Made by a program: the position numbers and the translations under genes. From a virus, in the IMG/VR virus record IMGVR_UViG_3300040758_000214, positions 64,001-128,000 of that record: a DNA stretch of 64,000 nt; one strand, written 5' to 3'. How positions within the stretch are numbered: the stretch's first letter is position 1; each line of letters starts with the position of its first letter. Positions 557-64,000 of the stretch are shown here, piece after piece. The notes under the pieces were generated by a model. The model had not been told where the DNA came from and made no database searches. It saw only the letters and a program-made list of their open reading frames with translations.

Positions 557-1441
557 TTATGCTTTACTTGCTAAGAATGAAATCATTTTGTTATATTTAC
601 TAGATTTATCTGACTCTGATAATATACATATAACTTCTGAAGGAATAAATAATTCTTGAATATGAATTGATGGGACAATATTATTAAATTCTGATTTATA
701 TACGTCTTTAATAGGATCTAATATATCAGAATATTTAGATCTTGATTTAAGCATATCCATCATTCCATAATGAATATACATCATAACTACATTGCAATAT
801 TTAAGTAATAAATTTTCAAAATCATCTGTATTTAATTCTGTAATTTTAGAAAAGTTTTCAAATATTATTTCATATAATTTTCTCGTGCTATACATTCTGG
901 TTAACTCAAAATAATTATACATAAAATTAATAATATTTTTTGTTTCTTTTGTTATATCACCTTTTAACTTAAATACTTTTGTAAAATAAGGAACATAAAA
1001 TTTCAATAATGTTTCACCAAATAATGATATAAATTGTTTAGGATATTCACTTGAAAACATATGAGTTAATTCATGTATAGTTGTTTCTGCTAAAAAATCT
1101 GCATATTTTTGAGTTATAATATTTTCTTTATGGTCTATTAAAATACATATTTTTTTCTCTTCTGGTAAATAAAATCCTACAATATGTTTAGCTTCTGAAG
1201 GTAAATCTTTAAGTTCTAATTCAAATACTCTTAAGAAAACCTTCGTATAATAACACGGGATTAATTTCTTTTTTTCAACTAATCTTATATAATCATTAGC
1301 ATAAGGTTTACTTCTATTACCAATTTTAATAGCATCAATAAATTTTTTAGTTAAAGTTGAAGATGTGTATAAAGGATGATCATTATATTCTGCAACCTTT
1401 TTTAAACTTATATCTATAGCAAGTTCATTAATGTTATCCAT
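557..1441 (-). CDS. HExxH zincin-like metalloprotease-domain protein
   Basis: VGFY...TTIHELTHMF motif with downstream E (PSEVI). Confidence 0.5.
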   Translation of the reverse strand: MDNINELAIDISLKKVAEYNDHPLYTSSTLTKKFIDAIKIGNRSKPYANDYIRLVEKKKLIPCYYTKVFLRVFELELKDLPSEAKHIVGFYLPEEKKICILIDHKENIITQKYADFLAETTIHELTHMFSSEYPKQFISLFGETLLKFYVPYFTKVFKLKGDITKETKNIINFMYNYFELTRMYSTRKLYEIIFENFSKITELNTDDFENLLLKYCNVVMMYIHYGMMDMLKSRSKYSDILDPIKDVYKSEFNNIVPSIHIQELFIPSEVICILSESDKSSKYNKMISFLASKA

Positions 1442-5477: not shown

Positions 5478-6542
5478 TTAGTTTGAAGGATTCAAAATGG
5501 CTAATGCATCTGTAATTTGGGATGGAATTACAAGAACACGTTCTGCAACATCTTCCATTAGAAGTTTAGCATTAATATTCTTTTCAAGGGTTGAAAATTT
5601 ACAAATAGCATTAAACAATTTCCAAGATGAAAGTGTTTCCCCTTCATTTACAACAGTTGAAAGATAATTGGAAATATCAACTCTTCTTTTCTTTCCAACT
5701 TTTTCAATTAAATCCATCATTCTTAAAAGATCATCATCTGTTACTGGAGTATTAAAATTAGTCTGGATTAAACTCAATGCATTCTGAGAAAATGCTTGTA
5801 CATAATTTCCAACCGCCGCAGATAATTCACTATGAGCTGATGTTAAATGAATTTGACGAATTGAACTAAGTTTATTTCTAAATCCAAAAGAAATAGATTT
5901 TTCATCACCTTCTAAAACTACAAACCCAAATGAGATTGTAATAGCTTTACGCCCATTATAACTATTTGTTACAATTACTTCTGGATATACATCCCCAACC
6001 TGAGGAATATTGGATACATTTTGAATAACCATTTCATGATACATATAATCCAATGTTGGAGGAATCATAGTATATTCTCTAAATATTGGAGTCTGTATTT
6101 CAGAAATCATTTCTCTAATTTTATTATTTAATGTATCATTGCCTGTAAATTGATAATTATTAGAAACTATACATACATATTTTGGATTACTTGTTTCTTC
6201 ATTTTCTCCTGCGATTGGTCTGGTATATAATCCTAAGAAAGGTACATCAATACTATCAATGGTTTTTAACTCTTTATAAAACACCTCACCAAAAGAATCT
6301 CTATAATTATAAATTCCTGGTTCTGTTAAAGTTAAACCCATTTCTTCATATGCTTCATTGAATTTTCTGTGCGTTGATGTCGTAGTCGGTGATTGCTGTG
6401 TATCACCTTCAGTAGCTTCACCTTGCTCAATTAAATTATTAATAATATCACTTGCTCTGGTTAAATTTTCATTAATCACTGGTTCATTAATTTCTTGAGT
6501 TGGATCTAAATTAATTGCAGTTTCTTCCATTTTATTCTCCAT
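5478..6542 (-). CDS. DUF932-like protein with acidic N-terminal extension
   Basis: IVSNNYQ and VIVTNSYNGRKAI..SFG resemble DUF932 NSxDG motif. Confidence 0.5.
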   Translation of the reverse strand: MENKMEETAINLDPTQEINEPVINENLTRASDIINNLIEQGEATEGDTQQSPTTTSTHRKFNEAYEEMGLTLTEPGIYNYRDSFGEVFYKELKTIDSIDVPFLGLYTRPIAGENEETSNPKYVCIVSNNYQFTGNDTLNNKIREMISEIQTPIFREYTMIPPTLDYMYHEMVIQNVSNIPQVGDVYPEVIVTNSYNGRKAITISFGFVVLEGDEKSISFGFRNKLSSIRQIHLTSAHSELSAAVGNYVQAFSQNALSLIQTNFNTPVTDDDLLRMMDLIEKVGKKRRVDISNYLSTVVNEGETLSSWKLFNAICKFSTLEKNINAKLLMEDVAERVLVIPSQITDALAILNPSN

Positions 6543-10086: not shown

Positions 10087-10431
10087 TTACTGGTCCATTT
10101 TCCATTTGTTTTTTACTCCTTCCTTCCTCCAATCTTCAGGATTAATATCAGAACATAATTCTAATGCAGCTCCAGCTAAAGCCATAACTTTTACAAGATA
10201 AGCATATGTATCAACCGGAGCTGAATTTTGCTCATCCCATTCCTTACAAGTTAATAACCAATCTGGTAAATCACGACTCCAATTTTCAACGTAACTTCTC
10301 TTAGCTTTTTCCAAATATATTTCAACGAATTGTAAAAATGATGCTACATTAAAACTAGGATTCTTTCCAAATACTTTGTTTTGATATTCTCTTTCTTTCA
10401 CATACAAATCTAATATCGTCTGACAATCCAT
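10087..10431 (-). CDS. MazG-like all-alpha protein (tentative)
   Basis: KEREYQ...LVKVMALAGAALE resembles degenerate MazG/dATP pyrophosphohydrolase-like phage proteins. Confidence 0.4.
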   Translation of the reverse strand: MDCQTILDLYVKEREYQNKVFGKNPSFNVASFLQFVEIYLEKAKRSYVENWSRDLPDWLLTCKEWDEQNSAPVDTYAYLVKVMALAGAALELCSDINPEDWRKEGVKNKWKMDQ

Positions 10432-10777
10432 TTATCTCCTTTTCTGATAACACTCTTAGATTTTTTAGTGGTAAATTCTCAATGAAAAAACTTTTAGATT
10501 TTCCTTGTTCTTTTCCTGTTAATACTAAGCATTCAAAATATCTTCTGATATAAGGCGGTGAATAATCATATAAAATTTTTTTATATCTTAAAGTAATTAA
10601 TGCTTTTTGTTTTCTTAAATATTTAGGTATTTTTTCTCTTTGTGTACCTCTAGGATTTGATGTTTCAACAAATTCTACTATATCTCCAACTTTAGTCTTT
10701 CTCGGATTTTCAATTGTATAAATTCTTCCAAACAATATATCTAAAAATGTTTTTAAATTATTAGTGGGTATAAACAT
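10355..10777 (-). CDS. Hypothetical basic protein
   Basis: 140-aa ORF in gene-dense run. Confidence 0.5.
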   Translation of the reverse strand: MFIPTNNLKTFLDILFGRIYTIENPRKTKVGDIVEFVETSNPRGTQREKIPKYLRKQKALITLRYKKILYDYSPPYIRRYFECLVLTGKEQGKSKSFFIENLPLKNLRVLSEKEINGLSDDIRFVCERKRISKQSIWKES

Positions 10778-60061: not shown

Positions 60062-60137
60062 TGGTAGGGGATGTCTGACTCGGACAGACGTATGCCAGAT
60101 TCAAAATCTGGTGCGTTAACCACTTCGCCAATCCCCA
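60062..60137 (-). tRNA. tRNA-Gln(TTG), CCA encoded, atypical
   Basis: CCAGA-TTTTGAA-TCTGG anticodon arm; U1:U72 mismatch, A73, T loop TCCGAGT. Confidence 0.82.
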
Positions 60138-61977: not shown

Positions 61978-62409
61978 TTATTGATAATCTTCTGTTTGAA
62001 TTATACCAAACTTATGAAAATATCTTAAAGGTCTCCACTTGTGCCCCTGCACAAGAAATCCCCATTTTTGGTATGGTCTCCCACAAAATATAATTGTCCA
62101 TGCACCTTCTTTAGGAATATCTAGATAATGCAATTGTGTAGCTTTCATTTTTCTTGGATGCCATGCAGTTGCTTCAAATGTTCCTTCTGGTGTTACATTT
62201 TTATATTTACCTTTTATAATTATTGAAATTAAATCACATGAGTGATCATGAAAATATCTTCTATCATCAGATTTTATCCAATGATGAAGTCGTATAGAAT
62301 AACCAAATAAAATTAATGTCCATCTATAAAGATAAGGACATTCTTTATATCCTAATTTCTCTTTCCATCTTATTTGAAATATTGTTCCAAATTTATTATA
62401 TGGTTTCAT
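61978..62409 (-). CDS. Cupin-fold phage protein
   Basis: IRLHH...SDD..YFHDH...H...AWTI...G...WGF. Confidence 0.7.
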   Translation of the reverse strand: MKPYNKFGTIFQIRWKEKLGYKECPYLYRWTLILFGYSIRLHHWIKSDDRRYFHDHSCDLISIIIKGKYKNVTPEGTFEATAWHPRKMKATQLHYLDIPKEGAWTIIFCGRPYQKWGFLVQGHKWRPLRYFHKFGIIQTEDYQ

Positions 62410-62636
62410 TTTAATTCTTTCAATTTAATTTCATAAATCATTATATCAAATTCAATTAATTCTTTTAGTCTATAATAGCCATCACACATTCTATGAGGAC
62501 AACAATCTCCTTTTTCTTCGATAATCATTAATGTTGTTTTAAGATCTTTTATTTTTTCTTTAATACTTATAAATTTTTTATCAAGTCTTTTCATATCTTC
62601 TATCTTTTCTTTTTCACTTATAAATTCTTCATTCAT
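62406..62636 (-). CDS. Hypothetical protein
   Basis: ORF with GAGG SD. Confidence 0.5.
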   Translation of the reverse strand: MNEEFISEKEKIEDMKRLDKKFISIKEKIKDLKTTLMIIEEKGDCCPHRMCDGYYRLKELIEFDIMIYEIKLKELK

Positions 62637-62654
62637 ATATTACCTCATATGATG

Positions 62655-62834
62655 TCAGTGCCCAAGGAATCGAACCTCGTACCTCCCACATGTGTTGGAT
62701 AACGTCCAGCTCATTTTCAAAATAAATTTCTATCATTGGCCTAATGATCATCCTTCAAATTTACTCACAAATCCTTTCATACATCCTCCCCGAAATTAAT
62801 CGGATGGTCGCTCTCCCATCTGAGCTAGACACTG
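62655..62834 (-). ncRNA. tRNA scaffold with 114-nt insertion replacing anticodon loop
   Basis: CAGTGTC/GGCACTG-A acceptor, GCTC-AGATGGGA-GAGC D arm, CGAGG-TTCGATT-CCTTG T arm; insert has GGAGG + ATG mini-ORF. Confidence 0.75.
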
Positions 62835-62842
62835 ATAAAATA

Positions 62843-62911
62843 TTTCCTGAATGGATGTCTCCCAGGTCCTCGGGCCCCCAGTATATTTAATATACTCATC
62901 CATTCAGGAAA
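62843..62911. other. 15-bp perfect stem with internal hairpin (structured element)
   Basis: TTTCCTGAATGGATG/CATCCATTCAGGAAA enclosing AGTATATT/AATATACT. Confidence 0.65.
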
Positions 62912-62929
62912 ACTTAATATTTTAACTTC

Positions 62930-63100
62930 ACCCCTGCTTTAGATTCCGCTAAAGCTTTAACGGACTGGTCGTCCGAACCATTTGTCTCGCCAGAGTTATT
63001 TGTGAATTATTGTTCACAAAACATATCACTGGGTACTTGAACACCAGCTCCCTTCACACCAGTCCTCGGTTAACGACCGGGAATCGAACCCGTACTATCG
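62930..63100 (-). ncRNA. Candidate structured RNA beginning with a tRNA T-arm
   Basis: CGGG-TTCGATT-CCCG, then GGACTGGT/ACCAGTCC stem enclosing hairpins, then GCTTTAG/CTAAAGC. Confidence 0.55.
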
Positions 63101-63105
63101 AATAC

Positions 63106-63495
63106 CTATAGAGAATCTGCAAGTTTCTTAAGATCCTCAAGAGAAGATCCTGCAAGTTGTTCATTCTCCTTCTGTGCGATGATTGAAAGGATTTGTTGTT
63201 TCTTTTCTTTATTGGATCTTGCAAGAGCAGCAGCTTCATTTTCAACCAAACGAACTTCAATGATATGTTTTACAATATCAAACTTCAATTGAATCATTGC
63301 GTCTGATTTATTTTCCTTGTTAACAAAGGATATATCATCTCCACTTTTTAATTGATGGTGAAGATCTATAGCAATTGCATCCAAATTAACTTTTCCTGTA
63401 TTACTGGACAAAGGAATATCCCATAGATCTTCAATACTTAAAAGACCTTTTGGTGAATCGAAACGAACTTTAAGTCGTGAGGCTTTTTCAAACAT
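63106..63495 (-). CDS. Conserved phage protein
   Basis: MFEKASRLK.RF.S.KG.LS.EDLWD.PL family. Confidence 0.75.
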   Translation of the reverse strand: MFEKASRLKVRFDSPKGLLSIEDLWDIPLSSNTGKVNLDAIAIDLHHQLKSGDDISFVNKENKSDAMIQLKFDIVKHIIEVRLVENEAAALARSNKEKKQQILSIIAQKENEQLAGSSLEDLKKLADSL

Positions 63496-63505
63496 GATTT
63501 TCTCC

Positions 63506-64000
63506 TTAGAAATTAATTTTTATGGTGCGGGTAAAGGCACCTTTAACTCTACATAATACACTATTCCGTTGTGTTGATGAGAACCCGAGGCCACTTAATT
63601 GATCCTGTGATTCTTCTGTTTTCATCTTTGATCCTACTACTTCAAAAACCTTACGATGTTCATTTAGTTCCTCAGTAAGAAACTCATTGAAAAACCCTCG
63701 TGCTTTTCCATCATTTAGACACCCATTGATCATAAAAAAGTAATGTTTATTTCCCACAGCTTTTTCATCCCAATGGTTCGGAGAATTCATAATTACAGAG
63801 ACTTTATTAAAGACATTCGTAGATATTCCCCATACTTCCTTTACAGCATTAGATGATGGAAGAGATTGAATAAATTCAATCCCCTTAGAATGTGAATATT
63901 TCAATTCTGCAACCACAACTATATCACCAGTCTTCATAGGTTTAGGATAAAAGAAATGATGTATAGTACCCATAAAGTCAATCTCTACTTCGAATCCTAC
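63506..64000 (-). CDS. C-terminal part of conserved large phage protein (TerD-like region); starts outside window
   Basis: Frame open to 64000 (VGFEVEIDFMGTIH...); SPNHWD...GNKHYFF...HRKVFE...QLSGLGFSST. Confidence 0.7.
   Translation of the reverse strand, partial: VGFEVEIDFMGTIHHFFYPKPMKTGDIVVVAELKYSHSKGIEFIQSLPSSNAVKEVWGISTNVFNKVSVIMNSPNHWDEKAVGNKHYFFMINGCLNDGKARGFFNEFLTEELNEHRKVFEVVGSKMKTEESQDQLSGLGFSSTQRNSVLCRVKGAFTRTIKINF

Follow-up and report, generated by a model that had tools for sequence, protein, structure and literature searches.

Interrupted tRNA genes have been reported before in large bacteriophages, notably in the Lak megaphages, whose 'enigmatic' tRNA introns fall into no known class (Devoto et al. 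2019, PMC6784885). The subject of the present analysis is a 180-nucleotide (nt) tRNA-like RNA gene on the minus strand of a 64,000-nt stretch of phage DNA (the window), which corresponds to bases 64001-128000 of the 143,060-bp IMG/VR virus record IMGVR_UViG_3300040758_000214 (about 28% G+C). The record is estimated to be 46% complete, and whole-record searches mentioned below cover this 143,060-bp part of the genome only. The Lak introns are the nearest published observation: in both cases the anticodon loop of a large-phage tRNA is interrupted by about 100 nt that belong to no Rfam class and have no known splicing route. However, the Lak introns were reported from ordinary tRNAs (Thr, Tyr) and were compared with intron-less alleles (PMC6784885), whereas the family described here is a single paralogous tRNA-Val-like lineage with C1-G72, frequent loss of U33, a loop of 6-207 nt and a linked cupin gene. 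No intron-less allele was present among three other near-identical assemblies of the locus, the only one of which that spans the element has the full insert. Comparison with relatives places the element in what appears to be a phage-specific family of expanded tRNA-Val look-alikes, of which the 114-nt insert is most likely kept in the mature RNA, a reading that we hold with moderate confidence.

Several known RNAs share part of this design, and its nearest functional analogues would be viral RNAs with a valine-accepting tRNA-like end, non-proteinogenic tRNAs and tRNA mimics of the YrlA type. The tRNA-like structure of turnip yellow mosaic virus is the valine-accepting 3' end of a plant RNA virus genome and has a pseudoknotted acceptor stem. 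Like that structure, the phage RNA is viral, apparently non-decoding, and equipped with identity bases for valyl-tRNA synthetase (ValRS), namely the discriminator and the middle and 3' bases of the anticodon, and with a predicted tRNA-like L-shape; unlike it, the RNA is encoded by a free-standing gene of a DNA phage and combines the top of an ordinary cloverleaf with an enlarged anticodon domain, and its valylation is putative. The Staphylococcus tRNA-Gly species that donate amino acids to cell-wall cross-bridges have a normal anticodon loop and altered T-stem pairs. They and the phage RNA are paralogous tRNAs that keep synthetase identity and carry changes expected to avoid normal translation, but the change in the phage RNA is an expansion of the anticodon loop, and a cupin instead of a Fem-type transferase would be its partner. 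YrlA and related Y RNAs (RF02553) are, like this RNA, non-coding mimics of the tRNA elbow encoded beside the gene of a partner protein, in genomes with RNA-repair functions (RtcB in this phage). Unlike this RNA, YrlA is permuted and lacks an aminoacylatable acceptor end and anticodon bases; RF02553 gave no match at E≤10, and no Ro60/TROVE protein was found in the 143,060-bp record.

Transfer-messenger RNA (tmRNA) likewise combines a large additional domain with an acceptor and T arm of the tRNA type, but its G3:U70 pair (alanine identity), lack of a D stem and of an anticodon stem, and conserved tag frame have no counterpart here. Group I introns (in tRNA-Leu-UAA, fMet, Ile and Arg) interrupt the anticodon loops of bacterial-type tRNA genes, as this insert does. 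They are at least 200 nt long, are built on a conserved P3-P9 core, follow a U at the 5' splice site and end in G, whereas the insert of 114 nt gave no RF00028 match (E≤10) and has neither boundary base. The element also falls outside the canonical elongator tRNAs, with no RF00005 match at E≤10, a loop of 114 nt and no excision that gives U33. An initial annotation, made from the letters of the window, had rightly pointed out that the insert is below group I size, lacks U33, a terminal G and a clear bulge-helix-bulge (BHB) motif, and that G3:U70 is missing.

An RNA family linked to a cupin gene

The feature is real. With introns allowed, ARAGORN calls the element at genome positions 126654-126834 (window 62654-62834), and in the same mode it called nothing in 20 shuffled versions of the 143-kb genome with preserved composition (2.86 Mb in total). 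Default ARAGORN and Rfam, even at E≤10, do not call it, and their calls in the window are tRNA-Pro, Gln and Asn only; tmRNA calling by ARAGORN, also suggested as a check in the initial annotation, gave nothing either. Logan contig L033, which stems from a different run, matches at 100% identity over 1356 nt that include the entire element, and one JGI and one ENA contig show 99.8% identity over the portions of the locus that each covers. The phage is present in samples SRR13201617, JGI 3300039412 and ENA ERZ27249702. Such independent, near-identical assemblies show that the sequence is no assembly artefact. The anatomy that had been read earlier (acceptor stem, A73, D and T arms, an ACCAU/GUGGG stem, a 114-nt loop with hairpins, a Shine-Dalgarno (SD) sequence and a small open reading frame or mini-ORF) agrees with our reading of the minus strand (Table 1), on which all genes around the element are located. 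The acceptor stem CAGUGUC/GGCACUG is fully paired (7/7, one pair being G.U), A27.G43 is the unpaired position of the anticodon stem, U8, A9 and G26 are present, and the variable loop is AGGUA. Folding against shuffles was not unusual (z -0.73 for the 180 nt, z -0.58 for the insert alone). Since folding energy is uninformative, the case is built on tRNA architecture and on relatives.

Searches at the nucleotide level did not reveal such relatives: with the element as query, blastn matched none of 50,697 phage records at E≤1, exact and degenerate patterns for the 5' half, the 3' half and the insert-exon junction gave no match in IMG/VR, and a gapped D-arm...T-arm pattern matched only two neighbouring normal tRNAs. 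The upstream 129-aa gene is uninformative as a neighbour, because the element is missing from the 30 IMG/VR loci that hold relatives of this gene and from the locus of its nearest database homologue (73%). Homologues of the downstream 143-aa cupin-fold protein, on the other hand, were found in 34 IMG/VR contigs, many of 200-675 kb, and most of these have a 150-230-nt 'tRNA with intron' (ARAGORN intron mode) just upstream on the same strand. A protein-profile scan of metagenome contigs added 80 further loci with the same arrangement; ARAGORN often labels these relatives as tRNA-Val (GAC, UAC or AAC) with inserts of 117-155 nt. In the reverse direction, a T-arm/acceptor pattern (GGGGGTTCGAATCCTTC-N5-TGAC) retrieved 18 IMG/VR loci, 16 of which have a cupin homologue directly downstream. 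A strict RNA pattern is present within 1.3 kb upstream of the cupin gene in 48 of 103 loci, to which inspection by eye adds more, and a minority of the cupin loci has a protein-coding gene upstream instead of the RNA. The window element occupies the same position, with the RNA ending at 62655 and the cupin gene running from 62409 to 61978 on the same strand.

The conservation pattern was counted in the 26 members of which the anticodon stem is clean (25 for the anticodon-loop bases). C1-G72, A73 and C74 were each present in 26/26 and G50.U64 in 23/26. The 5-mer that immediately precedes (5' of) the anticodon-stem 3' strand reads N-A-C-(A/U)-(U/A), with A35 in 23, C36 in 24, A37 in 19 and U38 in 18 of the 25 members. 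N34 is unconstrained, A being the most frequent base, and position 33 is a U in only 11/25. The acceptor, D, anticodon and T stems are nearly always paired by many different pair types, and the anticodon stem is canonical in 126/130 cells, again with many pair types and with compensatory changes. The homologue search and covariation analysis that the initial annotation had recommended thus yielded a family with covarying stems. Variability is confined to the 5' side of the anticodon loop, the total length of which ranges from 6 to 207 nt: L048 and L116 have a normal 7-nt Val(UAC) loop, syntenic relatives have short loops of 6 (L068), 8 (L045, L051) or 12 nt (L041), L167 carries an additional uninterrupted copy with a 7-nt loop and A33, and the other members carry 46-207 nt. 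L053 and L059 have an additional insert in the D-loop. The window element shows every feature of the family (C1-G72, A73, C74, CACAU followed directly by GUGGG, and the 114-nt loop).

The identity set of ValRS, as established for Escherichia coli and Thermus thermophilus, consists of A35, C36, A73, G20 and G45, and G20 and G45 are both present in the window element. Conservation of C1-G72, A73, C74, A35 and C36, with U33, N34 and loop length left free, fits charging and not decoding. As ValRS identity bases are kept and features required by the ribosome are lost, a non-decoding, probably valine-accepting mimic is favoured. A proline-type assignment, earlier based on C1-G72 and A73, does not hold, since the family keeps the valine-type A35-C36, here within CACAU. 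These RNAs constitute a phage family of expanded tRNA-Val look-alikes that so far has not been described.

Among other observations on these contigs, the most distant members, L079 (1013-1291) and L084, lie on IMG/VR contigs of 308 and 280 kb; they have a G+C-rich 207-nt insert with the same UAGGCCA hairpin loop as the window element, and their cupin (33% identity) is encoded about 850 nt downstream. The 101-kb phage contig L081 carries, next to a tRNA-Val look-alike, a tmRNA gene at 965-1334 (-) (RF00023, 55.2 bits). Amber-suppressor-type tRNAs (CUA) occur immediately upstream of the family member in L045 (2322-2394) and L051 (2244-2397), which hints at stop-codon recoding in those phages.

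Table 1 Positions (window coordinates) of the tRNA-Val-like RNA gene, its parts and the two genes that follow it
Feature	Position	Strand	Remarks
Whole tRNA-Val-like RNA gene	62655..62834	(-)	RNA nt 1-180; C74 at 62654; CCA not encoded
Acceptor stem 5' strand CAGUGUC (C1)	62828..62834	(-)	7/7 pairs with 62656-62662
D arm GCUC-AGAUGGGA-GAGC with G18, G19, G20	62810..62825	(-)	Sequence reading and ARAGORN
Anticodon-stem 5' strand ACCAU, nt 27-31	62804..62808	(-)	4/5 pairs with GUGGG at 62685-62689
114-nt inserted domain, nt 32-145, 5' side of anticodon loop	62690..62803	(-)	
P1 hairpin CCGA-UUAAUU-UCGG	62790..62803	(-)	Right after anticodon-stem 5' strand
Mini-ORF AUG..UGA (MKGFVSKFEG)	62748..62780	(-)	Judged not a gene
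P2 hairpin AUCAUU-AGGCC-AAUGAU	62732..62748	(-)	Self-complementary GGCC in loop
P3 hairpin UGGA-CGUUA-UCCA	62696..62708	(-)	Sequence reading
C34 A35 C36 A37 U38, valine-type anticodon and nt 37-38	62690..62694	(-)	Directly 5' of anticodon-stem 3' strand
Anticodon-stem 3' strand GUGGG, nt 39-43	62685..62689	(-)	
T arm CGAGG-UUCGAUU-CCUUG with G50.U64	62663..62679	(-)	
Acceptor 3' strand GGCACUG and discriminator A73	62655..62662	(-)	
76-aa ORF, Cys-rich, own SD GAGG, between RNA and cupin	62406..62636	(-)	Starts 19 nt after RNA
143-aa cupin-fold protein, conserved neighbour of the RNA family	61978..62409	(-)	PHROG 4786

Retention or excision of the insert

If the insert is retained, the acceptor stem with C1-G72, A73 and C74 and the D/T elbow should permit processing by RNase P and addition of CCA, and A35, C36 and A73, together with G20 and G45, would be read by ValRS. 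With the 7-nt loop and U33 lost, the requirements of the ribosome would be gone, their place being taken by a folded domain that is predicted to consist of P1, a purine-rich linker and P2 with its GGCC loop. The main alternative is an intron-bearing tRNA-Val(CAC), from which the 114 nt, as an 'enigmatic' phage tRNA intron, would be cut by some endonuclease or ribozyme and the halves joined by RtcB to give a decoding tRNA. We consider this unlikely, but several observations speak for it. Next to an anticodon stem that is intact and covaries, the anticodon and nt 37-38 have been preserved, ARAGORN interprets many relatives as tRNA-Val with 117-155-nt introns, excision in L040, L042 and L064 would leave a perfect loop of 7 nt with U33, the phage encodes RtcB, and tRNA introns of unknown type exist in Lak megaphages (PMC6784885). 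Moreover, other tRNAs of L085 have inserts of 17-104 nt, several with a common 5' motif.

In the window element itself, however, no excision yields U33, the candidate loops being CC-CACAU or AA-CACAU, and U33 is absent from 14/25 members. Loops with 1-5 extra nt, as found in relatives, cannot be spliced; we know of no mechanism by which loops of 6, 8 or 12 nt, or of 7 nt with A33, could be, and these odd short loops occupy the same syntenic slot as the large inserts, which supports retention. The commonest wobble base of the family is A34, which in bacterial-type tRNAs is to our knowledge restricted to tRNA-Arg(ACG). A decoding role is also difficult to reconcile with the coexistence, in L081 and L085, of an ordinary tRNA-Val(UAC) that has U1 or G1 and the loop CUUACAA, and with the codon usage of this phage: a CAC anticodon would serve GUG, which is rare (6.8% of valine codons).

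No signature of a known intron or ribozyme was found. At gathering thresholds and at E≤10, Rfam gave no match to tRNA, tmRNA, YrlA, group I introns or self-cleaving ribozymes in the element. It recognised no group I intron or self-cleaving ribozyme in the inserts of relatives, and the 207-nt insert of L079 gave no match to RF00028. No 3-4-3 BHB motif was seen when the sequence was read by eye, a dedicated scanner not being used, and the nucleotides that follow the 5' strand of the anticodon stem pair locally as P1 and not with the 3' end of the insert. An endonuclease of the EndA type (tRNA_int_endo) was not matched in the available 46% of the genome. A deletion scan of the element with ARAGORN cannot place splice sites, because nearly any deletion is accepted as a tRNA.

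The inserted tRNAs of L085, an IMG/VR contig of 392,823 bp, are located for example at 10093-10269, 10378-10556, 2737-2890 and 5993-6151 (-). Their longer inserts, likewise in the anticodon loop, begin with AUAC(G/A)G, which in two cases is followed by a covarying hairpin with the loop ACCGAAAC. This looks like a second, different insert family.

Several points weigh against a retained, charged RNA that works with the cupin. RtcB is the ligase of enzyme-catalysed tRNA splicing, the NAC-A-U at the 3' edge of the insert would be expected of an intron-bearing tRNA-Val too, and in some members (L040, L042, L064) simple excision gives a canonical loop. ValRS would have to tolerate about 109 extra nt beside nt 34. 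The insert of the window element has no alignable relative and folds no better than shuffles. With regard to the cupin, several loci (e.g. L127, L133, L158, L163 and L170) have only a protein-coding gene directly upstream of the cupin gene, and in the phage studied here the 76-aa ORF is situated between the RNA and the cupin gene.

Structure and coding potential of the insert

Local alignment of the window insert to the inserts of other members gave scores below the shuffle null, and the helices of this insert, P3 included, are predictions from its own sequence. Family-wide, the inserts are more structured than shuffles (mean z -1.59). Reading of the sequences reveals a recurrent layout, in which a P1 helix after the 5' strand of the anticodon stem is followed by a purine-rich stretch, P2, and a single strand that ends in NACAU. 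RNAalifold recovered the cloverleaf, P1 and P2 from four related members, with 8 pairs changed on both sides. A hairpin loop with a G/C-containing self-complementary tetranucleotide is present in 25/32 inserts as compared to 7.7+-2.4 in shuffles, a control that does not preserve hairpin content, and the P2 loop of the window element (AGGCC) is of this type. The loop UAGGCCA is common to the window element, L122, L147 and the very distant L079, and other members have (A/U)AGCUA, GAUC or UGCA in P2. Between L147/L122 and their close relative L144, GGCC is replaced by GAUC, a double change by which self-complementarity is kept. We infer that the palindromic P2 loop may serve in kissing dimerisation or, equally possible, as the site of a dimeric protein.

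The initial annotation had regarded an unconserved random insertion as a finding that would speak against a functional RNA. The insert sequences indeed cannot be aligned, yet the architecture and one hairpin motif are conserved. It had also proposed a miniature tmRNA analogue or tRNA-mRNA hybrid, because the insert of the window element contains an SD-like GGGGAGG (62785-62791), located 4 nt ahead of the AUG of a mini-ORF of ten codons that ends with UGA. This part of the proposal was not borne out. An AUG-initiated ORF of at least 8 codons is lacking in 15/32 related inserts, only 5/32 have an SD-like site, and the mini-ORF peptides are unrelated across the family. Moreover, 45% of shuffled versions of the window insert contain an ORF of at least 10 codons, and 8.6% contain such an ORF with an SD-like site. 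With a mini-ORF that is unconserved and near chance, G3-C70 instead of G3:U70, an intact D stem and no tmRNA call (RF00023, ARAGORN), a tmRNA-like RNA was rejected as a candidate. A pseudo-tRNA was ruled out by the invariant C1-G72, A73 and C74, the near-invariant A35 and C36, and stem covariation. The explanation that the element is either a decaying pseudo-tRNA with a random insertion or a small coding RNA with a translated mini-ORF could appeal to an insert sequence that is unique to this phage and to the SD-like site with its ORF, but in view of the above it is very improbable. Of the earlier suggestion of a stable small RNA or mRNA on a tRNA scaffold, the stable-RNA part comes close to what the family comparison supports and the mRNA part does not.

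The interval of 270 nt that separates the element from the 129-aa gene (window 62835-63105, minus strand) folds much better than shuffles (z -3.04). It contains GGGUUCGAUUCCC, which resembles an isolated T arm, and at about 62845-62910 a 14-bp hairpin, in the apical part of which is a GGGCCC that is self-complementary and also complementary to the GGCC of the P2 loop. No Rfam match, YrlA included, was obtained for this region.

Neighbouring genes and possible functions of the RNA

The 143-aa protein belongs to PHROG 4786, labelled 'cysteine dioxygenase'; it has no match in Pfam or NCBIfam, and an atlas search gave no more than a weak lead, to cysteine dioxygenase. In the alignment of cupin homologues H54-D55-H56 and H94 are invariant. 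For an AlphaFold2 model (pLDDT 84.5) the best Foldseek hits, among them TM1459, BacB, DddK/Q and HppE, are small Mn/Fe cupins, i.e. generic metal cupins. The Cys-rich 76-aa ORF has no tblastn match in related loci and no match in Pfam, PHROG or NCBIfam.

In many relatives the AUG of the cupin gene is only 2-12 nt past the 3' end of the tRNA-like sequence, which leaves no room for an SD sequence, so that RNA and cupin are probably co-transcribed. Processing of the tRNA type may thus create the 5' end of the cupin mRNA. This raises the possibility that the element is primarily a cis-acting leader, of which cleavage by RNase P and the 3' tRNA-processing enzyme releases or controls the downstream mRNA (76-aa ORF, cupin), similar to tRNA punctuation. 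The short distance, the location of RNA and genes on one strand and the conserved pairing are in agreement with it. A leader function would, however, leave the conserved A35-C36 and the P2 loop unexplained, the gap amounts to 200-800 nt in some other members, and in the window the next ORF starts 19 nt downstream with its own SD. As a full explanation it is improbable, but it is compatible with a retained, non-decoding mimic and not exclusive of it.

The phage encodes an RtcB RNA ligase (genome 12975-14180 (-), 180.6 bits) and a nucleotidyltransferase of the CCA-adding/poly(A)-polymerase family (genome 42117-42482 (-), 118.2 bits), which together are an RNA-repair toolkit; an Rnl2-type ligase was not found in the record. 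An enzyme of the CCA-adding type would be needed, as CCA is not encoded in the element. The two enzymes suggest pressure from tRNA-damaging defences, and one could imagine, as the initial annotation did, that the RNA is a decoy, or a sponge, i.e. a non-decoding tRNA-Val mimic that absorbs a host defence nuclease directed at tRNA, or some other tRNA-binding factor, with the valine anticodon region as its recognition site. Conservation of the anticodon-side bases and of the tRNA body with loss of decoding features would fit such a role. Linkage to the cupin and the conserved C1-G72, A73 and C74 would not be explained, and we know of no anticodon nuclease that is specific for tRNA-Val, which makes a decoy quite improbable.

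Two further tRNA genes of the phage deviate from the standard. The tRNA-Gln(UUG) at window 60062-60137 (-) has a U1.U72 mismatch on top of the acceptor stem, and a CCA-encoding tRNA at genome 129672-129750 (-), beyond the window, called Asn(AUU) by ARAGORN, has an odd anticodon loop that is either CCAUUAA with a closing U.U or 9 nt long; U33 is absent there too. Upstream of the element, window 63106-64000 (-) and the sequence beyond it hold a two-gene module that encodes a protein of about 670 aa (DUF8224, PHROG 1735) and the 129-aa protein (PHROG 2018). This module is widely conserved in phages, and in some relatives it is directly followed by a tRNA or a long hairpin.

To return to the retained, non-decoding mimic, the architecture, the family, the way in which its bases are conserved and its association with the cupin gene are direct observations, and from these we infer that the RNA is unspliced, valylated and working with the cupin outside translation, with a role as amino-acid donor, substrate or partner in a ribonucleoprotein (RNP). 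The P2 loop could allow two RNAs to kiss or could form a protein site. A more specific and quite tentative picture would be that of a valine-charged mimic that pairs with itself through GGCC, never enters the ribosome, and offers its aminoacyl end or the A35-C36 strand to the cupin, for a phage-encoded, tRNA-dependent non-ribosomal reaction or as an RNP, either of which would be without a described precedent.

The findings have consequences for annotation, since default tRNA finders and Rfam miss these genes. The tRNA genes of large phages are usually taken as helpers in codon usage or as spares against host nucleases. The paralogous tRNA-Val lineage described here keeps the signals for charging, drops those for decoding and has grown a structured domain that varies between members; in many jumbo phages from the environment it is accompanied by one small metal enzyme. 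Should the insert be spliced out after all, these genes would represent a tRNA intron type of bacterial viruses without a known mechanism, which is the question left from the Lak phages in 2019. If the RNA is instead aminoacylated and serves a purpose other than translation, or assembles with the cupin into an RNP, this would be a new use of the tRNA fold by phages and would provide a handle on an abundant cupin that has no assigned function.

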